55,069 nucleotides of DNA, taken from an uncultured virus (IMG/VR IMGVR_UViG_2049941000_000050). Its lineage: Duplodnaviria; Heunggongvirae; Uroviricota; Caudoviricetes. The notes beneath the pieces are model-generated. The model was not told the origin of the DNA, did not search any database, and was given only the letters and a program-made list of their open reading frames with translations. Where the stretch lies: the IMG/VR virus record IMGVR_UViG_2049941000_000050. The stretch is one strand, 5' to 3'. The translations under genes were made by a program, and so were the position numbers. The stretch's first letter is position 1; each line of letters opens with the position of its first letter. Positions 1 to 35,678 of the stretch are shown here, in pieces.

Positions 1-1456
1 TGGGTTTATCGGAGGCCACACCCAAAAACGCCATCTGTTTCCTGGATTTTCCGTAATCAGACGCACTGACCGCGAAATTCCCGCTGGTAACGTTGTAGAC
101 GGTGCTTCCTATATTCACGGTTTTACCGATTCCGGAAGGTCTGCCGAGATATTTTCCGTACCCAAACCGGTGGTATGTGGTGCTTGTTAAATCGAACCTA
201 TTATCGAAAATAGCATCGGAACTGACCAGTGGGTTGAGAACCGTTTCCTCGTCAATGATTTCGTTCAATCCCGCTACTTCCGAAGAAATGTCGGAAAGCG
301 ACGTGAATTTCAGCAAAGAGAAGTTTCTGTTCCCGGAACCGTCATTTGTTGCGCCGTATTTGTCGTTAAACACCGAATCCGAGGAAATAAAAACGCAACT
401 TATCTGGTCACTGGTAATCGTGGTATCTTTATTGACATAATAATACCTATCATTAAAATTGTCCGCGAGAACCGTGGGTTTTGTGGAAGTCTAGTTGAAC
501 GGGACCGTTTTGTATGAGTTTCCGAGTGGGAACGTCACGTCACCCTTGGTTTTCCCGACAACAAAAACATCACCAGATTGCCACGGCTTTGTGGGAACCA
601 GTTTGTCGGCGTTGACGAAACGACCGCTGGTATTGATAAAACCGCGTTTCGTGATGGGTTTCTCATCGGAGACGTTTCTCTTGTCGATAGAGGCACGCCA
701 CTCGAAAGATTCTGTTCCGAGGGGCTTGTCGTTCATCGTCATAACGATGGAATTCGTACATCTATTGGAGAAATTGTTGCTTCCGTTGTTACTACAGAAA
801 TTGGAAGAGATATACGAGCTGTTTCCGCACTTTTCCAGCAACAGCCTTATTTGCGAACCGGCATAGAAAAACCCATGGAAATCCAAATCAAAAATAGAAC
901 TCCTGAGCGGTTCTTGACAGATGCTCTACCACCCATTTTCGGTAAGAACCTGGAGAGAGGCTATATCTTTGTAATTTACACCGCTGTTACTGGAATAATT
1001 AGCAAGGCTCAAACAGTTAAACGTGATATGGATATACGCGTTGGCGTCGGATTTGAAAGTATAAATTTCCGATTCCGCGTTCCCGTTAGTAGCACTAATC
1101 ATCGATGTAAAAGACGACGAAAGCGAGTACACCTTTCCAGAGAACACGTTCTACTGGGTCATCTTTATGTTGTTGATTGATTCGTCTATACTTTCCATAA
1201 ACTCTTCGCCGTCCCCTAAGTTCTGAATGTTGATGTTTGTGAGCTGGTTCTTCAGTATGTCGTTAACGATATACTGCCTTATCGTTTCGAGAGTTATGCC
1301 CCTCGCATACGACAACGCCTGTTGGGTCAAATCGTTGTTGTTTGTCTCGTGTGAAACAACAAACACATCACTACCCTTTACGGTAGTATCGTCTCTTCCG
1401 GTGTCCAGATTTAACTTGGTCAGGTCGTCTATGGTCTTTACTTTGATGTTTGACAT
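1..1456 (-). CDS. Putative tail fibre protein, 3'-truncated by the window edge (at least 485 aa, three TAGs)
   Basis: ATG 1456 follows GTAAATA; the frame continues through TAGs at 1151, 926 and 491 and stays open to the window edge. N-terminal TIDDL...DVFVVS anchor-like motif. Confidence 0.65.
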
Positions 1457-1477
1457 TTGGATTTACCTTACGAGAAT

Positions 1478-1484
1478 TATTTAC
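1478..1484 (-). promoter_or_regulatory. Putative late promoter GTAAATA
   Basis: Intergenic, between TGA 1490 and ATG 1456. Confidence 0.62.
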
Positions 1485-1489
1485 GTCTG

Positions 1490-3169
1490 TCAGATGGGGT
1501 ACCCGGTGGATTTTATCTTCGTCCACGGTTTCAAAACGTTAGCTGTGGTCTATTCCTAATTCATGTCGTTGTTGAGGTCGTACTGCATCGTTCCGACATA
1601 CTCGCCGTCAACATCGTTCAAAAGCCTCAGTAGGATGATATCGCTCTCTTCGATGTCTTCCCCATCGATTTCCAATTGGAGATACGGGCCGAAAAATTCC
1701 GTTTCGTCCTCTTTTAGGTACGGGTTCTGCTGGTCATTTACGATTCCAACTCCCTATAAGTCCAACGACAGAAGGTTTTTCTGAACGGTTTCCGTAATCG
1801 AGTAGAAATCCGGACTGGGGAAATCTTCTGGATTTTCCGGGGTGGACCAGTCCGCGCCGACGTCGTGTCTGTAAAGCGGGCCGTTCAGGCTTCCCTGTGC
1901 CCACCCGAGAATCCTGTCCCCGACCTTAAAATACTTTCCGTCCCCGTTGTTTGAGGTTAAAACGCCGTAAGCTATCCTGCTGTCGGCGGAAATATTCTCC
2001 CCGAACACAATCGGACCGTACTCGTACACCGCCGGATAACTCACGTTCCCGAAAGAATCTTTCGAGGAAAGGTTTCCGTAGAAAGTCCCGATAAAAGTCT
2101 GATGGTCGCCGTAAACGACGCTCAGAACCGTGTCGGCGGTAATCTCGTATTCCTTAAACTCGCTGAATTTTATGCGGTGGGTGGGATTGGAGACGTTGAC
2201 CACGTAGTTAAAGTATTTTCCGACCTCGACGTTCGAGCTGACCGAATCAATGCTCAGACCGGCTCCGCCGAAAACGTTCTCCATTGTGGTTCCGGACTGA
2301 ACCTGGAACACTTTCGAGCCGTAATAGTCCTTTTGAACGTAATAGTAGACGATTGCGACGTAATCGCTGAGACCGATGGACTCGGTGACATCCCTGACAC
2401 TCATTCTCAGGGCGTGGAAAACGTTCGGTCTGACCTCTTTCAGCACGAAAACTGCGCGTTCGCCGCCTCTCACGAGGTTGTCGAAACCGGATTCGGAAAC
2501 AAACTCCAAATTTTCTTCGGGGCTGTTTCTGTTGAAGAGAACCGCGCAGTCGTTTTGCGCCGACACGTCTATTATGAAGTGTCTGGAGAACTGGAGATTG
2601 CTCAGTTGTGAAGACAGATTGGACTGAAGCTTGAAAATCGCGGTGTCGTTACCATTCTTGCCGATTTCGCACTGCGAAACGAACGAGTCGCGGATGCTGT
2701 AAAAAGCGTTGTCTTCCCCCGGCACGACCGAAAGGCGGTCTATCTTCTGGAAAAACAGCTGTTCCGCCGAAATTGCCTGGGCTTGGCTCGAAAGCTCGGG
2801 AATCTGGTCGATGAGCAATTTTTTTTCGTTGAAATCTGAGCTCAGCTCGTCGAATTTTCCGCTCAGTTCGGAAAAATCGGAGGAAATCTTCGCGATATCG
2901 GCGGGGGTGTTTTNNNNNNNNNNNNNNNNNNNNNNNNNNNNNNNNNNNNNNNNNNNNNNNNNNNNNNNNNNNNNNNNNNNNNNNNNNNNNNNNNNNNNNN
3001 NNNNNNNNNNNNNNNNNNNNNNNNNNNNNNNNNNNNNNNCCCCGTAGGAAATCTTCTCGGACACGAACTTGTCGCCGTACTTTCTCGACACTATGAAAAG
3101 GTCTTCGGTCGAGAGGCTGTGGGAGGCGGAAAGCTCCTGAATCGACTGGTCTACTATGAAATGGCTCAT
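1490..3169 (-). CDS. Putative tail fibre-associated protein (~559 aa including a 126-N gap; three TAGs)
   Basis: N-terminal IQELS...EDLFIVSRKY...SEKISY motif; SRHFIIDV...GERAVFVLKEV domain. Reads through TAGs at 1754, 1556 and 1550 to TGA 1490. Confidence 0.68.
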
Positions 3170-3195: not shown

Positions 3196-4218
3196 TTAAT
3201 TGTTAGTGTATTCTTCTGGAATTTCCGTCAGTTTTCCGGAACACGAGACAAAAAACTCGTCTTTCGCCACCTCTTTTATCTCAATCAGAACCTTCTCACC
3301 GCGTTTCAAAACCCCCGAAAGGCGGTCGTCCCCGAAACAGAACCTCTGTTTTCCCTCGCTCGCGAAAACGACCCTCGTGTCTGTCCCACAATCCACACAA
3401 ACGTAAAGGTGCCTGGAATACCCGTCTCTGAACTCGGGAATTCTAAATTTCGTGACGCTCTGGATGGCGAGAAAATCATTCTTGGCGAAGAGTTTTAGCG
3501 TCGTGTATTCGATTTCGGCGTAAACTTTCGAGATGGCGTCCTTTTTCAGGAACCCGCTTAGGTTTTCCTAGTAGACCGGAATATGTTCCCGGAGATTTTC
3601 TATCGGTTCCGTGTCGACATCGTCGATTTGTTTCCCAAGAACCACGGTTTTTTCAGAAAGGGTCGCGTTTTTCGCGCTAAGTTCCCCGATGTTCCGCGAA
3701 TTTTCCTCGACGCGCTCCCCCATCTCCCCGAAAGACAAATCTGCGGAAAGGCTGTCGAAAACCTGCGTCGCGGAAATATGCTGTGAGTAAAAGAGCGCGT
3801 CGGAATTTTCGTCATATTTCGAAATTAGGAAAATTCCGTCACCGTCGGAAGGGAATGGGGGGGTTGGGTCGAGCTTGCTTATCGGTAGGTCGTCAGAAAG
3901 AAACCTCGTCTCGTCCTCAAACTGCTACTGCGCCATTAGAACTGGCTGAATCTGCCTGAAAGTCTCGGAATACTCGCGGTTTTCATCCTCCAGTTCCCCG
4001 TTTTCCTCCTCGAGCCTCTGGTTCCATTCTCTCAGGAACCGGTTTTCCTCCCTCAAACGTTCGAGCTCCGCCCCGTAAAACGCGGAAACCACGTTAACCG
4101 AGTTATAGACGGAGACGCTGTCATCCCCGGAGGCGTAATCGGAAATTACCGCTCCCAGTGTTATGAACTGGCTGTCAACAAAACCGTCTGAAAAACTGCT
4201 TACCAAAACATCGGACAT
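3196..4218 (-). CDS. Coiled-coil fibre-associated protein (340 aa, two TAGs)
   Basis: The frame from ATG 4218 runs through TAGs at 3925 and 3568 to TAA 3196. Heptad LREENRFLREWNQRLEEEN; the C-terminal SRHLYVCVD...GEKVLIEIKEV domain is shared with the next gene. Confidence 0.7.
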
Positions 4219-4219
4219 C

Positions 4220-5368
4220 TCACACCACACCTATGTAAACCATTACCGGCATAAAAACGTGCGTCGGCTTGGATTCCACGTCCGGAGATGAGCCGCTCTC
4301 CATGGACTTCGCGTTCTCAATCTGCCCGTCCTCGAAACTGCCGTTTATCTCGAAATCTATTTTCCCGGTCGGGGTCGAAGAACTTCCAAAACCGCACATA
4401 TCGTAGTAACCACTGCCGCCGTTTCCGATTGGAAGCTCATTTATTTTCGGGGTTTTCGGTCTTCCGGAAATCGTTACCCCGAGTATTTCGTGGGAGTGCG
4501 GCGCAAGACCGTTGTTGTACCTGACGAATTTCATCGGGTCTTCCTTCTCCGTGCCGGGGTTCATCCTTAAAAAATTCCTGAGGTCGGGAACCTTAAAGCT
4601 CCTCTTCCCGGTTTCCTCCGGTTCTGTACCGTACAGTCCGAAAGCTTCCTGAAACCTGTTCCCGTCAACCGTGAAAACCGTACCGTTCGGGTAAACCCAC
4701 CCGTCGAAATCCTCAGAATCGATATCGACGTTAAAATTGTCCCCGTATTGCCTGACGACGCTCTCGTCAAACTTGGGTAGTGCGACGAATTTTAACGTTC
4801 CCACGTCGAACACGTTAAAGTCGTCTAAGTCGACGGCGGGAACGTTGATATCAACGGTTTTGACTGTCATTTTCCCGTCCTCGGTCCAGTTGCTGACCTT
4901 AACCGTCATTATGTTCCAGTATTTCTGGTTTTCGTCGCTCAACACATCCCCGATGTTGAAATAATCGTAAACGTCGTCGTGAACGTGGTCGACCAGCGAG
5001 TAGTCGTTCCTGTCCTCGAACGCCATGCTCCCGAGATTAAGTCCCTTTTTCACCCTTTCAACGGTCTGTGAGCAAAGGTCGTGGTACTCGATTGCGAAAG
5101 AGCTCATTTCCCCGGAAAGAAAATCCTTCCTTTCCTCGTTTAAGAGGAACGCACCGGCTTCCGCCGGGTCCAGCATAATTCTCCCGTCGAAATATTCCCT
5201 GAGAATGTAGGCGTCAGAACTCAACGACGAAATCTAGTCCGCGTGCGCGATTAAAAACAAGTCGTTGTCCCCGATTTTCTTAACTTCTTTGAGCTTCGAA
5301 ATCGGGGTTCCGCTTAGTTTTTCGGACAGTCCCAGTTCTTGGTATTTCTGCAAATCTAAATCGGTCAT
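4220..5368 (-). CDS. Short tail fibre with tail-collar domain, paralogue 3 (382 aa, one TAG)
   Basis: ATGA overlap at 5365-5368; TAG at 5234. VGTLKFVA...FDGWVYPNG...FKVPDL, PHSH, KPTHVFMPVMVYIG. Confidence 0.8.
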
Positions 5369-6339
5369 ACAGGGACTCCTATGTACATCAGAACCGGGAT
5401 GTTGAAATGCGTCGGGAAATTTTCACTGTCCACCGCCTCATTTTTGGTGATGTCGGCTGTTTCCACCTTTACCCCGGACATATCGAACCTAATGTCCGCC
5501 TGAATCGTGCCGGTTTTAGAATTTCCGGTGCCGTGGTGTTTTCCGGAGAAACTGCCGATTGACTTTCCGTAAGTCTTGATGTTTCCGGACAGTGAAAACG
5601 TTCCGTCTAAGCTGAACTGGGAAATGTCGTGGGCGTGGTTCTTCAGCGCGATATTATATGCGACCCTTTTCATCGGGTCTTCGGTTTCCACGAACGGGTT
5701 GGCTTTGAGAAAGTCTTGGATTCTCGGAATCCTGAATTTCCCCTCGGTCTCCGTTCCGGTCTGAATGGTTTTGAACGCCTCGTAGGCATACGGAAACCTG
5801 TTTTTCGAGATTTCTCTCCCGTCTGGGTAAACCCATCCGTCGAAATAGTCCGAATTCTCGTCTATCGGTGAAAGTTTGGGGGCGGCGATGAATTTCAGTG
5901 TTCCTATCCTTCTTCTCATAACATCCGGGGCGGATATCCTCAAAATGCTCGGAATGCAGATGTCTTTGGAAACCCCGTCAACAACGATATGCCCGAGAAC
6001 TATAACCCTGTCCTCGCTTTCGGGGACCGAATAGTTTCTGGAATAGTGTGGGAAAACCTCGACCCTGCTGTATCTGCCGAAATGGTTGTGGTCCTTTCTC
6101 GCGTAACCGTTTTTATCCTCGGTGGCCATCGTCCCGAGGTTCATATTCCCGAAAACCGCGCTATAAATCTAATCCCGTAGCATTTTGTAGGTGGTTTTTT
6201 GGGATTTATAAAAATTGGACTCCGATTTTCCGTTCAGTGGAACACTGACTAGAAATTTATCCCTCTCCTGAAGGTCCTTTACCTCCAGCTCCTCCTGAAT
6301 CGGGCATCCTTCCAGATACTGGACGTCGATGTCGCTCAT
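5365..6339 (-). CDS. Short tail fibre with tail-collar domain, paralogue 2 (324 aa, one TAG)
   Basis: ATGA overlap at 6336-6339; TAG at 6169. IGTLKFIA...FDGWVYPDG...FRIPRI, NHAH, FPTHFNIPVLMYIG. Confidence 0.8.
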
Positions 6340-7289
6340 TTTTTGGCACCCCCGATGTAAATCATGACCGGAATAAGGTTGTGGTTCGGATAAGTCTCGG
6401 AACTGTCGGACTGAACCTGTAATTCTCCCGTCGCCGAGGTTATGTTGATGCTCCCAACCACGAGTTCATACTGGTCTTGGGTCAGATATGAGTTGTTCAT
6501 CTGCTTGCTACCGCTGTGAATCGAGTTTGAGCCTCCCGTTTCGTCGTCGTTTGGGGTTACCGGAATCTGTGTGGAAACGTCAAGTTTGACGTCCAGTTCC
6601 TCGAACGAATCCTTTCTGATTCCGTGGGTGTGCGCCGGTATCCCCTCGGTCTTTCCCTCGGTTCTCGTTGTCCCGACCTGGGTCGGCTCGGGATTCGGCT
6701 TGAAAAACGCGGAAAGGTTCGGAACACGGAAGGTTGTGGACGAATCGCTTTCCTTGAACATTTCCCACGCCTCGAGGAACCTCGATTTCTGAAACTCCGA
6801 GCCGTCGGGGTAAACCCACCCGTCGAAATTTTCCGAATCGATGTCAATGTTCCCCAGACTCGGAACGGCGAGAAACTTCAGCTCGCCGATTCTCGGTTTC
6901 TCGATTAGCTTCTCGACGCTCTGCACCGGGGATTTCACAACATAGTCTTTTATTTCCCCGTCGGCGTCGCTGACCGTGAGCGTCGCCACGTCCAGATACG
7001 TTAAGGACGGGTCTTCGTCTCTCAGATAAACCCTGACATTCGAATACTCTTCGTGCCCGTGGTTCTTTCTCGCGTAATCATCCTTGTCCTCGAACGCCAT
7101 CGACGAAACCATAAGGTTCGCCGACACGGTGGCGTTTACGCTGTCGACAAAGCTCCCGAATGAGACTTTTTTGGAGAAATGGGCTTCCTTTTTCGGGTTA
7201 TAGTTCCGCGAAATGACGAGGAAATCCCCGTCATCGGCCTGTTTTCTTCTTTCAAGTTCGGAAATTCTTCTGCCGTTAAGAACAAGCAT
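6336..7289 (-). CDS. Short tail fibre with phage tail-collar domain, paralogue 1 (317 aa)
   Basis: IGELKFLA...FDGWVYPDGSEFQKSRF...TFRVPNL, IPAHTH, ETYPNHNLIPVMIYIG; ATG overlaps the previous TGA. Confidence 0.8.
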   Translation of the reverse strand: MLVLNGRRISELERRKQADDGDFLVISRNYNPKKEAHFSKKVSFGSFVDSVNATVSANLMVSSMAFEDKDDYARKNHGHEEYSNVRVYLRDEDPSLTYLDVATLTVSDADGEIKDYVVKSPVQSVEKLIEKPRIGELKFLAVPSLGNIDIDSENFDGWVYPDGSEFQKSRFLEAWEMFKESDSSTTFRVPNLSAFFKPNPEPTQVGTTRTEGKTEGIPAHTHGIRKDSFEELDVKLDVSTQIPVTPNDDETGGSNSIHSGSKQMNNSYLTQDQYELVVGSINITSATGELQVQSDSSETYPNHNLIPVMIYIGGAKK

Positions 7290-8203
7290 CAGATGCACCT
7301 CATGTAAACGTACCCGTCCGACGACACCGAGGGAAGTTTGAATTTTCCCTCCGAGGAAATAACCGTGTAATACCAGAACCTCCCGGTAGCGTTAACTATC
7401 TTCTCTATTTTGTCAGAACCCAATTCCGCCGTGAGAATTTTATGTCCGTCGTCGGACTTCTGATATTGCACGCTCAACTGGACTGTATCATCATTACTTA
7501 AAACCGTGTAAGTGTCGTTTGACGGCGAAGAGCTGTTCAAATCTCCGGTTAAGTGTTCGTAAACCTTCGGAAAAGATGTACCGGAAATCCAGTTTCCAGA
7601 GCCACTCGAGAGCAGAACATAACCGCAATCCGAACTAAGCGACTCGTTTTTGTAATCGAGTGAGATTGTGTTAAAAAGCGGGACGTTCGAATCGACGTAG
7701 CTTTTGTTCGCGAGCTGGTTTTTCGAAGAAACGGTTTTATCGCAAAACGGGGTTCCTTTAAACTGGATATTTTGCGTTTGGACCGTTAAATCTCCGTCCG
7801 ACTTAATGCTGACGCCGTTTTTTCCGGAAATTTGCGCGGTGTCGCCCGAAAGCCCGACGTTGTTTACCACCGCCTGAAAATCCCCGGAGCCGGAACTGTC
7901 CTTGAAAACCCCTACCCCTCCGCTGACCTCTATCCCGTCGGTGAAAACCGTCTTTAGCTCGACGTTCTGGCTCTTCCCGATGTTCAGAATGTCGTTAAAC
8001 GTGCCGACCGGGACCGCGAAGGACTGGTATTTCGCCTGACCGCCCTAATCCGGGTCGGCTTCGGAGCTAATCTTATACGAAAGCTCGACAAATGAGGCGG
8101 ATATCCTGTCTTTGAAAGCATTCTGGTCCGAAAGAACACTGAGATACCCGCTCATTTTCTGAATCTGGAAAATCGGCAAATCTGAAATTTTCTGAATGGA
8201 CAT
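7289..8203 (-). CDS. Putative tail fibre/collar-associated protein (304 aa, one TAG)
   Basis: ATG 8203 with AGGAG upstream; TAG at 8045. QLANKSYVDS and GYVLLSSGSGNWISGTSFPKVYEHL...FKLP are collar-like; TGA overlaps the next ATG. Confidence 0.68.
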
Positions 8204-8232: not shown

Positions 8233-10215
8233 TTACGGGGTGTCGAACTGTCCCGCTTCGTCTTCATCATCGGGCGGGTCGTCCGGAAATTCGTAATAAT
8301 CCGTGTTGTCCGCCAGAGGGGTGGTTTGTTTCGGGATGTAACCCTTGAAGTTATCCTCTATCTCTTTTTCCAAATCGAGATAGTAGTCCGCGTCTATCGG
8401 AACGGAATGAAGGCTCTTAATGTTTTTTAAAACCGTCCCGTCCTCTTTGTTCCAATAAAAAATGACCGCCGGGATGGAGGTTTTCCCGTCGCTCCACTGG
8501 CTTCTGACAAAATACGGCTGGGACGGGATTATGGAAAACTCCATCATTGAGGTGACGGCTACCGTGCAGAAGAAATACGGCTGTTCCCTGACCCATTCCT
8601 GGAATTCCTTGTTGTCGTACACGAGACTTTCGTAGGTTTTGCACTTCGTGCATCCCCCGATGTCGGAATACTCGACGAAAACCGGGACGTGATTCTGGTC
8701 CGCGAACTTTTTCAGCTGTTCCGCGTTGTAATACCAGACTCCCGGCTTGAAATCGCTGACCTCGTCTTTGTTCACTTCGGGAATATCGTATTCGTCGACC
8801 TTCTTGTCGCCGGTCACAGTGAAAAAATGCCCCGACTTGGAAATCATCTGGACGGAACTCAGAGGCGAGCCGAGCTTCGTTATATCCTAGACGTAATCCG
8901 AGTGAGTTTTGTATATCTCCACGTCAGCCCCGGCAAAAAACTGCTCGGCTGAAAGTTCCGGGGAAAAACACCTGCTTCCGCGATTCGTCTGCTTTATCTG
9001 GGAACTGGTGAATCTCGTAAAATACTCGTTTCCGTCAGACTTTTTCCAATACAGTGTCATTTTCGCGTATGTTCCGCTCGAACCGGAACTGAAAAACCTC
9101 GGGTCCGACTGGTGCGAAATCGTTTTCCAAAAACTGTACTGGGTTCTCGCATCAGCAAAGACGTAATAAACGAGACTGCTGGTCTGGGAAACGTAATCTT
9201 TCCAAGCCTGGCGGTTTAACACCCTTTCCTCTAACGCCTTGCAAATCGTGCACCCGGAATTCTGGGTCTTGTCGGTTATTATGACCATCGGGATGTTGCG
9301 CTTCTGGGCGTCGGACAACGCCTTGTCAAATTCCGCCTGGGACGTAATGTAGGTCCCGCTGGAAACAACCTGCGTGGAGCTTTTTTGCTCGAAGGTTTTG
9401 TCGTCTATGCCGAAAAAGCGTATCGAGGAAACCGAGCTCCCCCTCAAAAAGTTCGGGTCAATCTACGTGAACGAAGAAATCGACGCCGGGAGGGTTATGC
9501 TCTTTAAATTTTCGCACCCGTCGAAAACCGAGGAGCCGAGATAGTCCATGATTGAGCGGTTGTCGGCGGAATCCTCTATCGTGACGTTTGAAAGACTCGT
9601 GCAACCTTTGAACATCTCGCTTCCCATCGACCAAATCTGGGAAGGGAAGGTTATGCTCCTCAGAGAGGTGCAGTTCGCGAAAACCCCGTTGTACACGTAG
9701 CTGGTTTTGTTTGGAAGCTTTACGTCGGTGAGACTTTCGCAACCGTCGAACGCGTGTTCGGCGAGAAAAGACGACCTGGTCATCGTTACGGATTTCAAAT
9801 CCTTGCAGTCCGCGAACGCGTACGCCTCGATTCCTGTGTCGTAAACCGTTCCGCTCAAATCGAGCGTGATGTTTTTCAGCCCGGTCCCCGCGAAAGCGTG
9901 GTCCTCGATTTTCAGAAACGTCTGTGGGCTGGTCCCGAAGGCGTCGCAACCCGTGAGGTTTCTACAGCCCATAAACGCGCTCGCGTCCACAATCTGGGTG
10001 TTGGTCCCGAAGAAAACGTCGGTCACGGAAAGGGAATTGACCAGACATTTTTTCCCGACCTCCTCCACCTTGTTTCCGAACCTCACGGAAACCGTCTGGC
10101 TCTGAATCGGATTGTCGGTCATGTCCCCGACAATCGTGATTTTTCTCAGATTGTCGGAGATTTTAATCGTCTTAATCCCGGGAGTGTCGTACCTTTTCTC
10201 AATAAAATGCGCCAT
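8233..10215 (-). CDS. BspA-type leucine-rich-repeat (LRR_5) protein fused to two thioredoxin-like CxxC domains (660 aa, two TAGs)
   Basis: Repeats AFxxCxxLxxV/IxL/FP (AFDGCESLTDVKLP, FANCTSLRSITFP). The frame continues across TAGs at 9463 and 8887 into ...NIPMVII...GCTICKALE... and ...HVPVFVEY...GCTKCKTYE...; TAA stop. Confidence 0.78.
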
Positions 10216-10216: not shown

Positions 10217-13200
10217 TCAATCTCCGTAGTCGATTACCGTCTGACCCGGGAAAATCTCCTCGGCGGAATCGACGTAAACCGTCGATTTCCCGTCGCTCCG
10301 GAACGTTATCTCGGTTCCGTTCACGGTACCGCTCGATTCCGTGTCCCAAACCGCGTACAGAACTATCCGGTCCGTGTTGGTGTAAACATCGGTCAAGAAC
10401 GTGGCGATTCCGGAATCGCCAAACTCCGCGACTCCGCCAATATCCGTTTTTTGCGTCGACCAACCGGCAAAAGCGAGACCCTTTCTCGAGAAAAGACTCT
10501 TGTTCAGCGTTATCGGGACGTCCATCAGAACTTTCTGTTCGGGCATAACCCCGGAACCCCCGTTCGCGTCGAAAACTATGGTTATGTACCTGGAGTCCTG
10601 GATATTCTCCCCGATGTACGTTATCTTTATCGACTGCTCGTCGGTTCCGAAACAGTAGAAACTGAACACGTTCTGTTTTTTCTCATCGTCGTGCGAATAC
10701 GGTCCGACAAGTGAGGGCGTTATGAGCGAGTTGAAAACCCCGTTCAGGTTTGAATCGGTTTCCGAAATATTTTCCTTATAAACCTTGAGCGGCAACGAAC
10801 ACCCGTTTATTTCCACGCCGAGATATTTCTGAATGTCGAACACGCTCGCGTTCAGCGTCACGGTTAACGCCGTGAAGTGGCTCCGGATGTCCGAATTCTG
10901 AATTCTTTTATCCTACTCGATGAGCGGGTTGTTCTCGAGATTTCTTCTCGACCTTTGCCTTTCGGAAAACTCGGTGTCTATTCCCGGCGCACCGTAAACC
11001 CCATTGAGATAATAGGTGAAGGTCGTGGGAATGTGGATGTAAAGCTCGTGAATGCCGCACCCGTAAGTTTTCAGAATGTACTCCGCCTCGACGTTTTTAA
11101 ATTCGCCGACGAAATTACTGACGTTGGCATTCAGCGAGCCGGAAGAGTTGTCCCCGAACTCTATGTCGTAGACCAAATCGTTGCGGACGTAAAACTCTTT
11201 TTGGTTGTCGGATTTTTCTACCTCGGTCCAGTTCTTATCGAGGGTCTCGAGGTCCACCGAAAGGGTTTTCTCGTTTAGAACCGTCATCGGGTCGGCGGAA
11301 AGATGGTATTCGCTAAGATGCTTTTCCAAATCGACCTGGTAACAGGTGTCGAGCGAGCCCGAAAGCTCGGAAACGAACTTCCTCATCTCGAAATCGCTTC
11401 TGGTGTCAAAATCGTTGATTAGCTCGTATGAGTACTCGGTCTTAAACAGCCCGGAATCCGTCGCGACGTAATATTCCGTGCGGTTCCTTATGTTGACGTC
11501 GTTTATCGTGTCGTTTTCGAAGGAGAGGAGCTGTTCCCACGAACCCAAATCACCCGAAGCTCTGAGGGTTCCGCCGTCGGAAGCCACAAAAGTCTCCCCG
11601 GGATTGCCGTATTCATGCCGTGTGAGGGTTTTCGCGTCCCCGAAGAACGGGACAGTGTCAAAAATCCCGTTCTCGTACTTGGTTAAACCCTCTTTTCCGT
11701 TTATGAGCCAAAAACCGCTGTCGGACTGGACTGCGCCGTAGACCGGTGAGGTTTTTTTATCGCTTGCGACCTTGAAAAGGTTTATAACCGCGTATCTGTC
11801 AAACGTTTCGATTTTATCCTCGGAAAACACGGCTTTTTTTCCTCCGACGCCGTAGGCGAGGAACATATCGTCGTCCAACCCGACGGAAAGCTCGGTTCTC
11901 TGTCCGTTTTCGTCCAGAAAATACTTTTTTTGGGGGTTTTCCTCGGTCACTAAAACGAGGTCGGTGCCCTGAATCGGGACTATGTTGGTACAACGGTCCT
12001 GGGAATACGTTTCCGAACCGTCCGGATTGCCGAGATAACGGTATTCGCCGTTTTTGTAAACGAAACACACCGAATTGGAGGTTTTTCTGACGTTTTCCGG
12101 TTCGCTTCCTGAAATTTTGGGTATCGGGGAGGCGTAATAGAACCGAAGCGGTCTGGTTTCGGCGTAAACCGCCAGGAAGGCGCGGTTTTCGATTGTCGCC
12201 ACGGTCGATGTTTTACCGTTTATCCGGACTTCCTGCAAACTGTCGGCGTAAACCCCGTCCGGAGCCACCGAAACCCACTCGCCGTTCCACCGGTAGGAGT
12301 AAAATTCATCCTAACCGTTCTCTTCCGCGCCTTTTACTATGACCGTTTCGCCGATTTTTTGCAGTCCGGAAACGATTTTCTGCTTATTTCCACCCAAATC
12401 GAGGAAAATGGACGAAAAACCGTTCTAATTGACGAATATTTCCCCGTCCTATTTCTGAAAACATACACCGAAATTGGTTTGAAACGCCTTTACCGCGTCA
12501 TAATCGCAATACGCCAGTTTGGAAATGGTCTTTTCCCCGTCCAGACTATCGTTTATGTAGCAACCCCGTCCGGTTATGACCACCGTTCCCGAGTAATCGT
12601 CGCCGGTTTTCAGGTATTCCCGTATCGTTAGGTCGTATGGTCTCTGTCTGAAGGCGTAATTTATGTCCGGAAGAGAAATTGTCTGGTAGGTCCCGCGGTT
12701 CGAGAGGAGGGTTTGGCGGTCGGAAGCCCCCCAGTAGAAAACCGCGTTGTCGGTGTTGATGTAAAACACCCCCTCATACTGGGAATACGAGATTCTAACG
12801 TCGTCCGAGTTATCAACGATGCCCTGTTGGGGCGTAATATTGACCGAGGACGAAGTTCTCACCGCCAAAAGCCTGTTGAAATCCAGATTTTCGGTCGGAT
12901 TTCCGTTGTAAAGGTAGTATTTTGTATGCCCGGCGGGCTTTCTTATTCTGAAAAACAGCGTTCCGAGAACCGACCTCACCCTATCGGCTTCGTAATTGAC
13001 ATAATTAAACAGTTGGCTTCCGTCGGCTATGAAAACCTTCCCGTCTGAGGAATAACAGACATATTCTCCCCATTTGCAGACGCCATCAACTGGTTTTCCG
13101 TTGTTATTAACCGCCTCTCTATTTTCAAAGCTCACATATCCGCCAGAAACATTTATGTGGTGCTTCCATAAGCCGGAAACGGTGCAGTTGTAGAGATAAC

Positions 13201-15211
13201 CGTCGATTATTTCCGCGTATTGGGAATTTCCGTCTTCCGAAAACTCCACCTAGCCCTGCTGAAGCGACGAACCTTTTACCAAAAGGGGTTTGTCCTTCCT
13301 AATAGCAAGCATAATCCCGTAGTTATCGCTGTAAGAAACGCTCTCAACGTTGTCAAAATCTTCGTTGTCGACCAGTTTGGTGCCGTATTCTTCCTTAAAA
13401 TACTGCAACACGGTGCTATTCTTGGTCTTTATGCCTAAAAAATCGGAATATCCGTAAATCCCGTCCGCCTTGGCGGCGACCCCGATATCCAAAACCCTCG
13501 GGTTGGAGTCGATATTCTGCCCCTCCTGGAACGAAAAGCAGTAAACCCGACCCTAATCGGTCATTATAAAGACGAAATTCTCGGTTTTTGCCATTCCAAT
13601 AAGCTTTTCCCCGCCCTGGAAACCGGTAAAGTCCCCGAAAACCTTCAAATAGTCGGATTTTTCGGGGTCCCCGTTCAAAACCGTCGCCTTTTTCTCGGTC
13701 AGAACCAGAATCTCCCCCCTAAAGGGGAAAGAATCCAGTATTTTCCTCGACCCGACGCTGTATTTCTTGTTTTTGCTCAAATCGTAGAGATAACCCCGCG
13801 TCTGGACAACCATGTTGCCGTAGTTGTCGAAAATTTTCTCGATTTTGTCCGGGATAACGCTTTCCACGCGGGAAATCGGGTCAAAATCGGAGATAAACGG
13901 GGTCTTTTCGGACTCTTTCTGAACAAAAACCGCCGAATAAGCCGAAGTTTCCGTGACATAGTACAGTTTGTTCCCGACAACCGCCAAATCGCGGATATTG
14001 TTGTCGGAAAGCACCTTGGAAAGCGAAAAAACGTCGTCAAGTACGTATATCTCGGTCTCGCTGGCGAGGAAAAGGTACGTCCTGCCGTTTAAAACGGTCG
14101 AGTCCATACTCTTGACCGTGAAATTTTCCGGCAATTTGTCGAAATGTTTGCAAATCTGGTTTCCGAGAAGCTTGTAAACGCCGTTATCGCACCCGAAATA
14201 GGCGCAATCGGCGTAAGTCCCGCAGTTGGCGGAGATTTTCTCGCCCCGGACCACCTTTTTGGGGTCGGAATAATCGAAATCGGTAACGTAAACGTCAGTT
14301 TCGGGCTCGTTCAGTCGGGGTCTGGCGACGATTACCACGGTATCGTCCCCGGAAACCTGGAATCTTGGGAACTGACCGTTTAAAACCGTCCTGTAATTGT
14401 CGTATTCCCAGCCTTTTCTTCTGAGAAACACGCCTTTGGAGGTGAAAGCCGCGACATCGTTACCCATCGGCATGATTTTGAATACCTTAGCCTCCGCGTC
14501 GTCGCCCACGTCCGACAGTTTAAGCGGAACATACTTGAAAATCCCACTATGGTCCGAATAACCGTCGTAATCTGCCTCGAAAACGCCCGTCCTGGTTCCG
14601 GAAAAGAGGGTTTTTGTGTTTTTTTCGAAGTGTACGGCGAAATATTCGCCCGAACCGCCGATTTTTTTGGCTGAAATCCCGTCCCCCTCGAAAAACGTGC
14701 GGTAAATCCCGTCTTTCGTCGCGAAAAACGCGGTTTCCCCCTGAATTTCGTAGGAATTCGCGCCGCAGTCTATGAAAACCGTCTTATTCCCGTCCCGGTC
14801 GACCCTTATCACGGAATTTTCCGTCCCCACGAATAGGGAATCCCTGAAAAACGCCGAAAAGACGACCTTCTGACCGGAAACTACCTCCCTCACTTCGGTT
14901 CCGAAGGGGTTTTCCTTCTTCCTGTATACCCTGAAGTCGGTTCCGTCGTCCCTCATGACCTTGAAACCGTCCGGAGCGTTGGATATTTCCGAATCCGAGG
15001 CGGATTTTGGACCGATAACCGTTCCCGCGTAGTCCCTAATCGCGTTCTCGACATACAAATCGTTATCCAACAGCTGTTTTAACGAGTTGTTTATGTTGGA
15101 AAAGTTGACGTTCTGGCTAAAATTGTACGAGATGTTGTCCCCGTAGCGATATGGAAGTCCGGAATACCGTCTGGTTTCGAGGATTTTGTTCTTCTGTCTT
15201 ACGTTGTTCAT
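10217..15211 (-). CDS. Large adhesin-like virion protein (1664 aa, six TAGs): beta-propeller-like repeats plus C-terminal InlB B-repeat (Flg_new-like)
   Basis: Five track ORFs are in one frame across TAGs at 13553, 13250, 12449, 12425, 12311 and 10913. Repeated (L/F)FxxTxxG(I/V)(Y/F) motifs; TIVFDANGGSGVMPEQ...FSRKGLAFAGWST...LYAVW; TGA stop. Confidence 0.75.
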
Positions 15212-19049: not shown

Positions 19050-20003
19050 TTAAGCGTTAATCGGATACCTTTTCACGGCTATCGATATGCCCTTTGTGAA
19101 GGCTTTGTCCGCCTGTCCGGCCATATCGACCGAAGCGGGCTTGGCTTTCATTTGCTGGAACAGAAGCGCGGTCAGCCTCCGGACCGGGATGTGTTGGATA
19201 ACCAGCTGGTTTGCCCCGACCGTAAGATAATAGAACGGGTAGAAATTCTCGTCTATGTCCGAAAGTGCCAGCTGTGCGTTTTCCTTCAGCTCTTTTAGGT
19301 TGCTCGACTCGAAGCACGACGTACAAAGTGCCAAAACCCGAATGTACTTCGTGTTAGTGGAAGAGTTGTAAATCCTTATTTCCGCAAGACTGTTATTCTC
19401 GACATAACACAGCCAATTGTTACTGAGGTCGGTGTCTGCCTTCTTGTCCAGCCACCCGTTTTCCTGTGCTATCTCGTCCTCCAGTCCATAAAGCGACGGC
19501 CAGGGCATTCCGTTGTTCATAACCTGGTAGAGCGACGAGTAGTTGACCGCTTTCTGGCTTTTGAGAAGATATTCGCTGGTCGGTGATTCTGGGGTCTGGC
19601 ACAACGGTCCGTTTTGGAACTTAACGCTACCGAAAACCGTCTGCTGGTCGGAAGAATCGGTTTTTAGGTATTTCGCGTTCTGGACCTCGCCGGTGTCGCT
19701 GACTATTCTGCGGTAAAGCTGTTTCGCTCCCGCCCCGGTCACCAGCGCGTCCGCGTTGTCGTCGTCCAGAATCCCGTCTATCGTGTTGACTTTTTTCGCG
19801 CTCTCGAAATCTTCGCCGATTATTCCGAGTTTGTTGACCACGCCGTCCATTAAATCGGCGGAAATGTCCGAATAAGCTATTTTTTCTGACTCGTAGTGGT
19901 CGTTGGATATGTATTTGGTTAGAATCAGTAAATCCTACGGCGACGCTTCAGAAGCTTGCGGCAACTCGCTAACCTTAACTTTATAAACCTGTTCTTCACT
20001 CAT
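19050..20003 (-). CDS. Tail fibre/baseplate-associated protein (317 aa, one TAG)
   Basis: ATG 20003; TAG at 19935. N-terminal KVSELP...DLLILTK...SEKIAYS anchor-like motif; YLKTD..QQTVFGSVKF and KADTDLSN are fibre-type motifs; TAA stop. Confidence 0.7.
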
Positions 20004-20024: not shown

Positions 20025-23000
20025 TCAGGAATGTGCCAAAATGACCCTGCCGTTCTAGTCAATTGCCACCTTTTCGTTCTCGAAAGTTAGGTAACTGCTA
20101 AAATTGTTCACAATCGTCAGGCTTCCGGACTCGGCTCTGATGTCCAGCGGGATTCCCCCCTGCGCTGAAATATTTACGTTCCCGAGCCAGATTCCGTACC
20201 TAAAATTGGAATATTTCAGCATATTCTGGGCAAGCTCCGAAGTCTCGAAAATAAGACCGAACTCGGAAACTTCCGGGTTTACGACGGATATTTCTAAAAC
20301 CCCGTTTCGGATTTCCCGAATTTGGTACCCGAATCCGGAGCGTTTCACAAACCTGACCGCGTCGTACGGATACTGGACAGTAAAACTTGAGCCTTTCGAC
20401 AGCATTTTCTGCGTCCAGAGGGAGATTCCGACCTATATTTCCTTCTTTCTGTTGAAATCCTCGGCTGTCATCTCAACCTCGGTGTCCGAAACCCTCAGAA
20501 CTCCGCCGGTGCTGACCCCTGCGGTAAGAGCTGAGTCTTTCTCGGCGGTGAAGATTCTGCGAATCATAAACTTCGGCTTGTCGTCCGATAGGTTGGTTAT
20601 CTCGTAAGATAGGACTTTCACGTTTCTGTACCCGAACAGTTTCCCGCCGTTATAGAACCTCACCTGAATCACTATGTCCAAAACCCCGGTTTCCCCGCTT
20701 TCCAACCTTAGGTAGGTTCCGTCGACGACATCGGTGTAAACGCGCCCGTTCTTGATTTTTACAAACGGCGAATTAATGTAGTTTTCGTAATTGAAGAACA
20801 ATGTTATCCCGCCATCCGGATTCTTCTTGTAATTCGCCTGGATTTTTAAAAACTCTCCGATATCAGCCGAAGTGGACGCTATGTCAACGTCAACGGCAGA
20901 CTGGAACTCGGAACCGATGTCGTCGTCCTGACCGAAAACCGAAAGTACCGAAATGGTCTGGTTGCTCAATAGGTAATCATTGACCGTTACCGCGCTGAGA
21001 CCGCTTTCGTCGACGGAAATCCCGTCGCCGGAAATATCGGTTCCAAAAAACTTCACAAACCTGAGGATGTGCGGGTCGTCCGGGCTGTAAAGCTGTTGGT
21101 TTTGGACGCTTACCGCTCCCGAACCGTCGCTCAGCGTGATTTCGGTTGTCCCCAAGAAATCCTCGTACGCGAGCACCGTCAGCTCATTCGAAATAACGTT
21201 TTTTGCCACCGGGACGGAAACAGTACCCAGAGACGAGAGAACGTTTTCGGTCTCGTTGGTGTCGATAAAGAACACGTTCCGGTTGTCGAAGATGGTTTTT
21301 CCTTGGTCGAACATCTTGGAATCCCCGACGGTGAATTTAAGGTGGTCCGCGTAATACTGCGCGGCGGTTTTCGGGAACTTCCGGTTCAGGAACGGATAGA
21401 AATACTCCTCATCCGAGAACGGGAACATATCCTCCTCGTTGTATTTGAAGGCAACCTTGTTCTGGTTGAAGATGTAAACGTCCGATAGGAAAGAGTATTT
21501 CGAAAGGTCGATGTCCTTCAGGAACACCCTTCCGACACCGTCAATCTCAATCGCGCTCTTCATACGGTCCGCGTCCGAATCGGAAATCTGCGTCTTCCCG
21601 TACACTATCTTCCACCCGGTTCCGGTCAGCTCGCTCCCGTAAAGCTCCCTGTTGGTGTAAACCTGGTAGGCGTTAACCACGCCGTAAGCGTCCAAAAGGT
21701 GGTAATATTTGAACTGCTCGATGTTCTTGTCGTCGAAAACGACCACGCGGAGCGTCCCTTCCTCGATAAATGTCGGGATTTCGGGGTGCTCGAGGAACAT
21801 TTTAACATTCAGTTTACTCTCGCCGCTGAGACAGGACACCGTGACGCAACTTATGTTGTCCAGCCGATTGGAATCGGTGCGGTTATTCTGGTCCTGGAGC
21901 TGGGTTCCGGCAAGGGAGAATTTTCCGTGCGTTCCGGAAATCGTCACTTCGCTGTCGTTTTCCTCGCTGTCGTAGGAGACGCTGATTTCCCCCCTGCCCA
22001 TTATGTCGGAAAACTGGCACACGCAGTACGGGTTTTTGCCGACGGATTTCGCGTTGAAGAAAACTAGGCTCATTGAACTCAGTTTCTCGGGTTCCTGCGA
22101 GAATTCGATGTCCCAGTTGAAATAGGTTTTTCCGTTGTCGGATTTCGGTCTGTTATCCTGATTAACCGCGTTGTCTCCGAACGTGTCGTTATCCACTATG
22201 CTGAGCTGGTCGGAAAGATTCGACTCGTAATCCTCGTAAACCCGACCGAAAAGCCTGTTCTGGAGAATGTCGGAAAGGTCGATAAACGGGTCCGCGTTAG
22301 TGTTGACCGCGTCTATCCATTTCGAAATGTCCTTGGAAACGCCAAGAAGCTGGATATTCTCGTAATCCCCGGCGTTGTTTATCGAATAAGTGAAGTTTTT
22401 CCCGGGGAAAAGCGGCTGGTAAGACATGTCGGCGTTAGCGTTGTTAACCGAAAAGCCGCCAAATTTCAGAACCCCGCCGTCAAAAACCGCCACGGCGGTT
22501 CCCACCGCCTCGACGAACGTGGCATAGGAGTTCATNNNNNNNNNNNNNNNNNNNNNNNNNNNNNNNNNNNNNNNNNNNNNGGAGTTCATCTCCGGGGAAA
22601 CCGGGTCTTCTATCGGGCTTCCCTCCGCCATCTCCGTTGGAACGAAGCTTTCGTCCGAATACTCGGGGCGAACCTAAGCGGAATCCTTCTCGACCACAAA
22701 CGCGAACGTAAGCGTTTCTTTCCCCGACTCGTCGCCGCTCGAGAAAATGATGTCCTGACCGAAGGCGCGGTAACCGGCACTAATCGCGACTTCCGAAGAG
22801 CAATAAGTTCCGGAGTCCTCCATAATCTGGTTCGCCGATTTGTTGAACATCGCGATTTTCACCACCGGGGTTTCGTCGAGCGAAACGCTGACGCAGTCCT
22901 GATTTCCGCTCAGAAGCCCCATGTTCTTCCGTGCGTAAACCATTCTTATGTTCGCCGCGTCCGGGGAATACATCCCGATAAAAGCGTCGTAGCTTTCTTT

Positions 23001-26000: not shown

Positions 26001-27803
26001 GGTGTCGGAAATCGCGGAAAGATACTCGGATGAAAGTTTTCCGCGGATGTAAACGTTCACCGCGTCGGAAATCTGCTCACCGACCGAACCTTCCGGGTAC
26101 TCGTAATCCCCGGCGGAAAGGAACTCGCGGAATTTTTCGAACGTGTCAGAAAGCGAGGTTAGCTCCTGGTACATGTCGCTGGCGTAAAAGTCCGCCGAAA
26201 TCCTATACGAAAAATTGCCGTTCTTGTCGATAAAGGAATCGTTCGAGCCGGTGGAATAAATCGTGTCGAGGAACTTTATGAAATCATCCGTGGTGTTTCC
26301 GATTTTGGACGCCATGTTGAGCGAGCTCAGATAAAAACGCTCGATTTCCTGGAGCGAGAACTCCATCCCCTTCTGGAGAACGGACTTGTCGTAAACCCCA
26401 TCAGCGGTCTCCTTGAAATACTCATCCTTGAAATGCGGGTTGGTCTGGTCGTTTATGGAGTCCGTGGATGAATCGGTCTGAAGATTGAAGTATTCGGTCG
26501 TGTCGTAATACTCGATTACCTTCACGTCATCGATGTTGCTCGACGAGAGCCTGGAAAAAACGGAGAGAACCGCGTCGTTGGAAAGCCTGTCCTGGATTGT
26601 CGGGCTCAGTCGTGAATAATCGACCAGAAACTCGTTTATGACGTACGTGAGAAGGTTCATCGTCCCCTTCATGTAGTTTTTACGCATCTGGAGCTTGATT
26701 TTATTTCTGAGCTTCTGTAGGTAGACTGTGGTTTCAGCTAGGTATTCCGAAACCTTCTCGACCATCGTTGCGTTTACGGATGGGGTTTCCCGGGAATAGT
26801 CGAAAACGCGGCTCCCACCGGAGGAAATCTGCCCGTAGTTCGGGTCGAGAGCGTAAACCCCGTTGAAATTCGCGTCCTGCTGTGCGTAAACGTTGTCCAC
26901 GAAAGACGCGTATTCGAGGACCTTGGCTTTCCTGTAGTATGAATACCTGGTTTTATTGTAACAGGAAAGCGTATCCGTCTTAAGCGGCGTGTCCCCGACA
27001 TCGGAGGATTTTAAAACGTCGGAGCGTTTTGCGAAAACCATCTCAAGGAGAGCCAGTTCCGCGCCGGAATAATTCTCGAGCGAGTCCAGACCCTGCTCGA
27101 TTCTGTCGCATATCCCGTTTTCGTCGAAATTGACGTCTATCCCGTTCTGAAGCTTGAATTTTCTCTCATCCGAACCGAAAATCTGGTCGAAATACACCTA
27201 GTCCAGCTCGTACTCGTTTTTCAGATAGTGGAAAATCGGGTCGATTTCCTTCTGCTCAGTGTTGTACCTCAGGTTCAAAAACGAGGATACGAGTTCCGAA
27301 AAGACCCCGGCGACGTAGTTTTTGTAAAGGTTATCGTCGATTGTGGAATACCCGGGAGAAACGCAGTTCGATGAAATCTATTGGACAAGGTCATCCTTTA
27401 TCTTCTTGTTGTCCAAAAGAAATTTCTTGTTGATGGAGAACACATCCATCAGCGCAAGAATCTCTATCGGGTACTTATCGATATGCTTGACGCCTTTGTA
27501 GTTGACGCCGAAATTGTTCAGCATCGAATTCAGCGCGACCACCTTACACGTGTCGACGTTGGAGACCAAATCGATGTAGTTCCTCACGTTCGAGTACGTG
27601 ATTTCCCCCATTTTGTTGCCGATGGCGGAAATCGCGTTCCAAACGTAGGTGTCCCTATCCTCGGACTACCCCTGAACGGCCCTTTGGAAACCCTCACCGA
27701 ACTCGCGGTTGTTTATGAAACTGCCCAGCGTTTTCGTAAAGTCGAAACCGCCGTCGCACATTCCGACCACGCTACCTATGCTCTCGATTGTACTTAAACT
27801 CAT
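20025..27803 (-). CDS. Giant baseplate protein (~2,590 aa, nine TAGs; gp7-like position)
   Basis: One frame runs from ATG 27803 through TAGs at 27666, 27378, 27198, 25551, 25137, 23391, 22674, 20433 and 20055 to TGA 20025, and includes a 45-N gap (22536-22580). Follows gp6; contains ...MRKNYMKGT..., reminiscent of the wedge KGT motif. Confidence 0.72.
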
Positions 27804-27807
27804 GACA

Positions 27808-29748: not shown

Positions 29749-29772
29749 ACAAAATACCCTAGGACTTTAGGA

Positions 29773-29779
29773 TATTTAC
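29773..29779 (-). promoter_or_regulatory. Putative late promoter GTAAATA (gp6)
   Basis: Intergenic, 24 nt upstream of the gp6 ATG. Confidence 0.65.
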
Positions 29780-29807
29780 GGTCGGCGGACCGGCGGGAAC
29801 GGGATTT

Positions 29808-30284: not shown

Positions 30285-30289
30285 TTCAG

Positions 30290-32266: not shown

Positions 32267-32273
32267 AGCTTCC

Positions 32274-33053: not shown

Positions 33054-33092
33054 ACAAAACACCCAATACAAAAAAACCGTTTCCGAAAAATC

Positions 33093-33230
33093 TCAGTCTT
33101 CCTGAAGCTCTTTCAGTATTCTTTCCTTGGCCTTTTCCTTCAAAACGTTCTTCAGGTTTTCCTCGGCCTTTTTGTCTTTGCCGGAAAGAATGTTTCTAAG
33201 CAATCGTTTTATCTCTTTTTTTCTAGACAT
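33093..33230 (-). CDS. Small basic helical protein (45 aa), possibly gp67-like prohead core protein
   Basis: MSRKKEIKRLLRNILSGKDKKAEENLKNVLKEKAKERILKELQED*. Starts 1 nt after the previous TAA and fills the gap before gp5; absent from the ORF track. The gp67 resemblance is by eye only. Confidence 0.55.
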   Translation of the reverse strand: MSRKKEIKRLLRNILSGKDKKAEENLKNVLKEKAKERILKELQED

Positions 33231-33231
33231 A

Positions 33232-33870: not shown

Positions 33871-33887
33871 CAGTCAAATCTCCCGAA

Positions 33888-35654: not shown

Positions 35655-35678
35655 TTCTAAAACCCGAAAATTCGAAAA

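Follow-up and report, generated by a model that had tools for sequence, protein, structure and literature searches.

Thioredoxin folds with a CxxC motif at the N-terminus of helix 1 are known from the Thioredoxin_7 group, which includes DsbH (2ju5), DsbD gamma (1vrs_D), AGR2/AGR3 (3ph9), and the exported Bacteroides proteins 3f9u and 2kuc. In protein disulfide isomerase (PDI), ERp57, ERdj5 and QSOX, several thioredoxin domains share one chain with a separate binding module. BspA-type leucine-rich repeat (LRR) proteins of the LRR_5 family (PF13306; 4fs7, 4gt6 and TpLRR 6mlx) are cellular surface proteins, exported or anchored, and LRR_5 proteins are common among uncultured gut phages. Here we studied a gene in a 55,069-nucleotide stretch of DNA from an uncultured virus (IMG/VR record IMGVR_UViG_2049941000_000050), called the window below, whose positions serve as coordinates throughout. 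The target gene, at 8233-10215 on the minus strand, encodes BspA-type LRR repeats followed by two thioredoxin-fold domains, A and B, and lies among contractile-tail genes. The LRR_5 and Thioredoxin_7 modules are each known; their combination in a phage tail module was found nowhere that we searched. The architecture is a recurrent metagenomic family and not a unique gene.

Under the standard code (table 11), the target frame is split into three open reading frames (ORFs) at 9463-10215 (250 aa), 8887-9447 (186 aa) and 8233-8847 (204 aa). When TAG was translated as Q (code 15), a single 660-aa ORF with two in-frame TAG codons was obtained at 8233-10215, as the original prediction had proposed for TAG read-through. 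The features of the gene are as follows.

8233-10215, minus strand: whole gene of 660 codons followed by TAA as the stop (8233-8235), with TAG translated as Q; homologues are contiguous over both TAG sites
10099-10215, minus strand: N-terminal segment, residues 1-39, with a conserved 'G.K.I(K/R)IS.N' motif and no signal peptide by inspection
9367-10098, minus strand: BspA-type LRR_5 repeats, about residues 40-283, matched by Pfam LRR_5 and by PDB sequences; a beta-solenoid in the AlphaFold2 (AF2) model, with a predicted local distance difference test score (pLDDT) mostly >90
9463-9465, minus strand: in-frame TAG at residue 251, in the last LRR turn
8989-9357, minus strand: thioredoxin-fold domain A, residues 287-409, with CTIC at the N-terminus of helix 1 and Ala384 (9064-9066) at the cis-Pro position
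9241-9252, minus strand: CTIC motif, residues 322-325; C322 and C325 are invariant in alignment A1
8761-8988, minus strand: linker and small beta-sheet module, residues 410-485, with a conserved 'FGS.LS...(I/V)SK.G' motif
8887-8889, minus strand: in-frame TAG at residue 443, in a low-confidence linker (pLDDT <50 at residues 437-441)
8341-8760, minus strand: thioredoxin-fold domain B, residues 486-625, matched by Pfam Thioredoxin_7, with CTKC at the N-terminus of helix 1 and a candidate cis-Pro, P582 (8470-8472), before strand 3
8641-8652, minus strand: CTKC motif, residues 522-525; across 36 sequences C522 never varies and C525 is conserved to at least 90%
8236-8319, minus strand: acidic C-terminal tail, residues 633-660, predicted to be disordered (pLDDT <50)

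The read-through is supported by the window at large. The 32 minus-strand gene models comprise 17,924 codons, of which 64 are in-frame TAG and none is an in-frame TAA or TGA. As terminators, the 31 complete genes use TGA (18) or TAA (13) and never TAG. A selenoprotein reading was ruled out, since in-frame TGA is absent. Both TAG positions of the target are bridged by uninterrupted homologues, for example P0002 (912 aa). By convention, and by alignment of a related metagenomic locus (L002, described below), the residue inserted at TAG may be glutamine: homologues carry Q in 43 of 84 aligned cells at the TAG positions of L002, although these homologues are possibly code-15 translations too. A search of the window for tRNA genes, including a suppressor tRNA(CUA), found none. 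The pattern resembles that of TAG-to-Gln recoded gut phages (code 15; Lak, crAss-like and other clades), which likewise carry in-frame TAG in late structural genes and use TGA and TAA as sole terminators. According to passages of bioRxiv 10.1101/2021.08.26.457843, in-frame recoded stops typify late structural and lysis genes of such phages, and the words 'thioredoxin' and 'leucine' do not occur in the text of that paper. The source of the window is a gut- or rumen-type TAG-recoded phage. Public protein sets contain the target solely as table-11 fragments (P0004, 194 aa, 99% identity; P0005, 103 aa, 97% identity), which helps explain why the gene stayed unnoticed. Its two TAG codons stand near domain borders, one in the final LRR turn and the other in the linker after domain A, so that incomplete suppression would yield LRR-only and LRR-plus-domain-A products; with only two codons, this placement may be due to chance.

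The domain assignments rest on profile and pairwise searches. Pfam LRR_5 matched the target in four stretches (E 2e-53), and by sequence the LRR part matched the solved structures 4fs7_A (2.3e-37) and 4gt6_A (3.7e-26). Pfam Thioredoxin_7 (PF13899) matched in two stretches (E 1.8e-8; 34.9 bits, above the curated cut-off of 27), the best at residues 494-561; domain A alone gave a weak match to Thioredoxin_2 (E 0.64). Domains A and B are 24% identical over 97 residues (pairwise E 2e-6). Thus, the first description of the gene, as LRR_5-type repeats followed by two related domains, is borne out by Pfam and by pairwise comparison. Its placement of CTIC at 9241-9252 and of CTKC at 8641-8652 is exact, and the motifs quoted there were all found (NIPMVII/HVPVFVE, SGCTICK/GGCTKCK and LYWKKSDG/FYWNKEDG). 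Outside Pfam, NCBIfam gave far sub-threshold matches only (the VPGUxxT seleno-thioredoxin family, for instance, scored 19 bits where the cut-off is 350), and domain B matched PDB sequences at chance level (E 0.12). Judged by eye, the N-terminus of the target, MAHFIEKRYDTPG, has no hydrophobic leader, and none of the 21 LRR-family phage N-termini inspected in this way carries a signal-peptide leader. The 'G.K.I(K/R)IS.N' motif of the N-terminal segment is common to phage LRR proteins with differing C-terminal modules.

Structure prediction with a 36-sequence alignment gave a whole-protein AF2 model with a mean pLDDT of 86.2 and a predicted template-modelling score of 0.63, and a second model of the tandem (residues 285-660) reached a pLDDT of 81.6. 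In both models, the two C-terminal domains follow the beta-alpha-beta-alpha-beta-beta-alpha order of thioredoxin, and each cysteine pair, C322/C325 and C522/C525, sits at the start of helix 1. P582 of domain B directly precedes strand 3, the position of the conserved cis-proline, and is a candidate for that residue from the model order; in domain A the position is filled by Ala384. A Foldseek search against PDB matched ERp57, PDI, calsequestrin, QSOX, ERdj5 and DsbH. An independent VIA-align search matched domain B to DsbH 2ju5 (Z 11.0, root-mean-square deviation 3.3, 124 aligned residues), DsbD-gamma 1vrs_D (Z 9.8), AGR3 3ph9 (Z 9.6) and the Bacteroides fragilis exported protein 3f9u (Z 9.4), and domain A to thioredoxin h 3d21 (Z 9.3). 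Because both searches return thioredoxin folds, the zinc-ribbon reading of the CxxC domains was ruled out, in agreement with the original prediction of thioredoxin-like domains.

Domain B is closest to the Thioredoxin_7 group, with which it shares the Pfam family (at a score above the cut-off), the fold (Z 9.4-11.0 over 111-127 aligned residues), the CxxC at the N-terminus of helix 1 and the candidate cis-Pro before strand 3. However, domain B has no sequence-level match in PDB, its G-C-x-x-C lacks the usual Trp, and the target family has 'GVWY.N' and 'YWKK.DG' signatures of its own. The target domains, moreover, are tandem, fused to LRR repeats, without a signal peptide and in a phage tail module. 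PDI, ERp57, ERdj5 and QSOX were top matches in Foldseek (E 1.6e-6 to 1e-4) and resemble the target in having several thioredoxin domains and a separate binding module, but the TM-scores are low (0.18-0.27) because their domain arrangement differs. Compared with PDI itself (a-b-b'-a', CGHC; TM 0.18-0.25), the target has no b/b' domains and no CGHC; its CxxC domains (CTIC and CTKC) are split by a small beta module, its binding module is an LRR, and one domain lacks the cis-proline. The BspA-type surface proteins share the LRR_5 repeats, whereas the target differs from these exported or anchored cellular proteins in having no signal peptide and in carrying thioredoxin domains.

We found that the thioredoxin tandem belongs to a sizeable family. 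A HMMER search with residues 285-660 recovered 91 cluster representatives at E <= 1e-3, 39 of them at <= 1e-10, and LRR_5 occurred together with a thioredoxin-like domain in 25 of the 62 homologues scanned with Pfam (489-1393 aa). Iterated profile searches over 94 proteins defined 153 domain instances. Both cysteines are kept in 129 of these, 9 are gapped at both Cys columns, and the remaining 15 have lost one or both cysteines or are gapped at one column. At 20-40% identity, the CxxC is therefore conserved far above the surrounding sequence, and conservation of the cysteines in homologues, named beforehand as a check on the prediction, spoke in its favour. Pro occupies the cis-Pro column in 96 instances; 18 have a different residue there and 39 are gapped. 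In 26 LRR proteins, the domains were assigned by ourselves to an A-type or a B-type according to domain order and tree position. By this assignment, the B-type domains have CxxC in 21 of 23 cases, C-x-P-C in 19 of 21 and Pro in all 20 that have a residue at the cis-Pro column; the exceptions to C-x-P-C are the target (CTKC) and P0040 (CSTC). The A-type domains keep CxxC in 18 of 19, C-x-P-C is not typical of them, and Pro stands at the cis-Pro column in 8 of 18 (otherwise Ala 4, Val 5, Ser 1). A third thioredoxin-like domain, lacking the N-terminal CxxC and bearing a 'VYHGCS.C' motif, is present at the C-terminus of many homologues some 900 aa long; the 660-aa target lacks this domain and has the acidic disordered tail instead.

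The searches for the combination itself covered phage genomes, virus records, GTDB genomes, structures and literature. None of 50,697 deposited phage genomes was matched by residues 285-660 in tblastn. No relative was found in IMG/VR, scanned with P0001, alignment A1, P0012, P0017, P0050 and P0013, or in GTDB genomes, scanned with alignment A1. In BFVD, the tandem model recovered generic viral thioredoxins only (E 7.6e-4 or worse) and none of the viral LRR matches, and the combination of LRR_5 and thioredoxin was not found. The literature search, which covered full texts but not supplementary files, found no description of this combination in a phage tail. The phage-genome, IMG/VR, BFVD and literature results agree with the initial statement that no such architecture was known in phage tails.

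Outside the LRR proteins, the same domain subtype was found in cellular surface proteins. Among 27 non-LRR matches inspected by eye, 22 begin with a signal-peptide-like start that is followed directly by this subtype, with the motifs 'GVW..N...A...hP', 'GC..C' and 'P....YWKK.DG'. These exported relatives are adhesin-like and 1000-1850 aa long; they contain repeats of the Calx-beta, RTX or AIDA type, and often another thioredoxin domain, of the classical W-C-x-x-C form, is present as well. Their signal-peptide-like leaders indicate that the subtype is used outside the cytoplasm. One cluster (P0062) carries the NCBI name 'thioredoxin family protein [Kiritimatiellia bacterium]'. Contig C78 of genome G002 (uncultured bacterium isolate RUG11875) encodes two giant proteins that match domain B (L005 2379-6380; L006 and L007), and the first of these, P0053 (L005), has a signal-peptide-like leader directly before the domain. 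Such giant surface proteins (the P0062 cluster and P0053) are long and adhesin-like, with the subtype and its motifs placed at the exposed end. They differ from the target in their cellular origin and export, in having Calx-beta or RTX repeats where the target has LRR_5, and in the second classical domain. In a FastTree of 103 domain instances, midpoint-rooted and without support values, the phage B-type domains form one group, which adjoins a group of these exported N-terminal domains; no donor or transfer direction was read from this tree.

We further analysed the position of the gene. All window genes are on the minus strand and make up a contractile-tail module with two sheath paralogues, three tube-like genes, a baseplate hub and gp25-like and gp6-like wedge proteins, after which come a 2592-aa protein without a family match, a 1664-aa protein, the target and then the putative fibre genes. 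The location within a tail cluster, as first proposed, is confirmed by these sheath, tube, hub and wedge genes on the same strand. The two flanking genes are the following.

10217-15211, minus strand: upstream 1664-aa tail-module protein with a C-terminal Flg_new repeat, a homologue of which also precedes the LRR genes in L002
7289-8203, minus strand: downstream 304-aa putative fibre gene, the first in a run of fibre paralogues

The ATG of the target lies one base past the upstream TGA and is preceded by a GGAG Shine-Dalgarno motif, and the next gene starts 29 bases after the target with an AGGAG of its own. Promoter-like and terminator-like sites were not in excess over shuffled controls. As judged from this gene order, the target is a member of the tail module and is presumably co-transcribed with the tail genes. 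PHROG matches of the target are of 'unknown function' only and confined to the LRR. When all collected homologues were compared by BLAST with the 16 remaining proteins encoded at 2-32266 of the window, no match was obtained, and there is therefore no gene-fusion link to the neighbours.

A scan of JGI/ENA metagenomes identified two related loci, L001 and L002. L002 is heavily TAG-recoded and contains a 941-aa LRR_5-plus-thioredoxin ORF with 28 in-frame TAG codons, which adjoins a gp25 homologue (47% identity, E 1e-47). The ORF upstream of its LRR genes matches the last 400 residues of the 1664-aa window protein (26% identity, E 6e-29). Between this homologue and the LRR_5-plus-thioredoxin gene lies one other LRR_5 gene, at 1245-3029 on the plus strand of L002, in which the N-terminal LRR chassis is joined to a caspase-like C-terminus (PADLOC caspase, 3.5e-5). 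The protein P0079 likewise has the LRR chassis with a caspase-like Peptidase_C14 domain (1e-11). These genes suggest an LRR chassis with exchangeable enzymatic C-terminal modules, thioredoxin or caspase-like (or both). In L001, a TAG-recoded ORF at 1-1842 on the plus strand (9 TAG, open at both ends) has a single thioredoxin-like domain with LLGCKPC and no LRR in the 614 residues covered; recoded elements therefore have the thioredoxin subtype in further large proteins too. The nearest virus record, G001, is a 32-kb IMG/VR sequence identical to window positions 22581-40000, with a partial match from 22481, and does not reach the target gene. Apart from G001, this phage lineage is missing from IMG/VR. 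CheckV estimates that G001 is 15% complete, which at 32 kb suggests a genome of about 200 kb.

Based on the above results, we propose, with somewhat less than an even chance of being right, that the target is a late-expressed accessory protein of the distal tail that acts as a single-use redox adhesin. It would be made by a large TAG-to-Gln recoded myovirus, with the N-terminal BspA-type LRR solenoid serving as the binding module. Gene position, translational coupling and the conserved neighbourhood point to a location in the virion, and both this location and catalysis are proposed from sequence. Domain B is most likely a working thiol-disulfide oxidoreductase, as it has in its sequence and model all the hallmarks of such an enzyme: the CxxC, the candidate cis-Pro and a family that is mostly C-x-P-C, as in thioredoxin. 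Domain A would turn over poorly because Ala replaces its cis-proline. In DsbA, cis-proline substitution is reported to abolish turnover, and the P151T variant is used for trapping mixed disulfides (PMC13269488); PMC2757866, citing Su et al. 2007, states that the cis-proline is thought to prevent metal binding. Domain A may therefore hold a partner cysteine or a metal. The early description of the protein as redox-active is well supported only for domain B, with its CxxC and candidate cis-Pro; domain A has no cis-proline. Since there is no signal peptide, the protein would be made in the reducing cytoplasm; given this site of synthesis and the lack of a reductase outside the cell, we propose that a dithiol is loaded in the cytoplasm, carried on the particle and used once. 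The LRR would dock on a component of the host surface or mucus, and the thioredoxin module would then make one thiol-disulfide exchange, by which a disulfide could be reduced, a mixed disulfide formed or a phage tail component unlocked.

Several points weigh against a redox adhesin on the tail. The presence of the target in virions is predicted from gene order, and its thioredoxin domains are not known to have a redox partner or a target. No match to a named tail-fibre, spike or receptor-binding family was found in PHROG or, for residues 285-660, in phage records, and the N-terminal motif of the fibre paralogues is not clearly shared by the target. The dipeptides in CTIC and CTKC deviate from the C-x-P-C of the family, and the cis-proline is missing from domain A of all three closest sequences. 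The caspase-like domain on the LRR chassis of sibling proteins is as compatible with an LRR-targeted effector as with an adhesin. In addition, strict anaerobes tend toward few surface disulfides. A more specific form of the proposal, which we consider improbable, is that particles carry a single-use redox charge: after docking, domain B would reduce or open a disulfide of the host surface, of mucus or of the phage tail itself, and domain A, for want of the cis-proline, would lock as a covalent mixed-disulfide tether.

The alternative that survives best, though we think it rather unlikely, is a receptor-binding or decoration protein of the virion whose thioredoxin-like domains are structural or ligand-binding, where the CxxC would form a stabilising disulfide or bind a metal. 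Thioredoxin folds often have no catalytic role, and calsequestrin, PDI b domains and UAS domains are among the fold matches. The absence of the cis-proline from domain A suits this alternative, its loss being reported to permit metal binding in PMC2757866 (citing Su et al. 2007), and so does the fact that an extracellular site would have no reductase for recycling. However, the CxxC persists in 129 of 153 instances at 20-40% identity, far above the conservation of its surroundings. All 20 B-type domains with a residue at the cis-Pro column have Pro, and 19 of 21 have C-x-P-C, the pattern expected of catalysis and not of a scaffold.

It is doubtful that the protein instead acts inside the cell as a morphogenetic factor, that is, a PDI-like foldase or holdase in which the LRR holds subunits of the tail or the fibres and the thioredoxin domains take care of the cysteines of these subunits as they are assembled. 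The union of tandem thioredoxin domains with a binding module echoes PDI, and PDI and ERp57 head the Foldseek matches; the gene stands between a large tail protein and the fibre genes, and without a signal peptide the protein would act in the cytoplasm unless packaged. Nevertheless, the neighbouring tail proteins are not Cys-rich (0-2.1%, the target being among the highest), and the bacterial cytoplasm normally forms no disulfides. A length of 660-1400 aa is also large for a chaperone, and the cellular relatives of the domain are exported.

We give an equally poor chance to an LRR-targeted effector, packaged and injected or acting late within the cell, that modifies a host protein, for instance by reducing or trapping a defence or envelope protein. 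Here the LRR would select the target and the C-terminal module would be an exchangeable enzymatic payload, a layout which is seen in the LRR-caspase proteins of L002 and P0079; the fusion of an LRR to an enzyme is also the layout of several secreted bacterial effectors. However, PADLOC gave no match for the target itself, no similarity to known internal virion or ejection proteins was found, and the nearest non-phage relatives of the domain are surface and not cytoplasmic proteins. Finally, that TAG is a true stop, leaving three separate genes (LRR, thioredoxin A and thioredoxin B) or a decayed gene, can practically be dismissed: table 11 does give three ORFs, public sets hold the fragments P0004 and P0005 only and the window has no suppressor tRNA, but against this stand the 64 in-frame TAG codons over 32 genes with TAG ending 0 of 31 complete genes, the homologues that run unbroken through both TAG sites, the AF2 model, which is confident and continuous through residue 251, and the Q found in 43 of 84 aligned cells in L002.

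Phage attachment is commonly understood as binding and, at times, glycan cleavage. To these, redox chemistry or covalent capture would be added by a tail-module protein with a conserved thiol-disulfide active site, if confirmed in this role. If particles do bear a single-use redox charge, phage attachment would gain its first known step of thiol-disulfide exchange, and it would be suggested that giant adhesins tipped with thioredoxin in gut and rumen bacteria use the same chemistry. The family also links phage tail proteins to uncharacterised bacterial surface proteins tipped by the same thioredoxin subtype, illustrates an LRR chassis that swaps thioredoxin and caspase-like C-terminal modules, and demonstrates that standard-code gene calling hides proteins of recoded phages.

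Other genes of the window, all on the minus strand, also merit description. Putative fibre genes with an N-terminal 'IS.L ... D.D(F/L)(F/L)(I/V)S' motif are located at 2-1456, 1490-3169, 3196-4230, 4220-5368, 5365-6339, 6336-7298, 7289-8203 and 19050-20003; the motif is internal in 3196-4230 and weak in 7289-8203. This shared motif suggests that several of the window fibres plug into one attachment site. Three of these genes, at 4220-7298, are tandem paralogues of 382, 324 and 320 aa that have the C-terminal half in common, with the motif 'FDGWVYP(D/N)G ... F(R/K)(V/I)P ... NP ... H.H ... PV..YIG'. This half resembles the phage tail-collar domain, but Pfam gave no match at E <= 0.01.

Directly after the gp6-like wedge gene lies a 2592-aa ORF (20025-27803) with 9 in-frame TAG codons and no match in Pfam or PHROG. 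At about 43680-43930, beside the N runs 43701-43710 and 43917-43926, 'NQFMFGFFVGAITDFV.SFISPIVDRFITVPL' is found twice in translation, and the end of the 43678-45057 product is the same as the start of the 42149-43693 product; this repeat is a tandem duplication or an assembly artefact beside masked bases. At 46248-54969, two tail-sheath paralogues (1047 and 908 aa) are accompanied by three consecutive tube-like genes, and such a sheath and tube duplication is unusual for a contractile tail.

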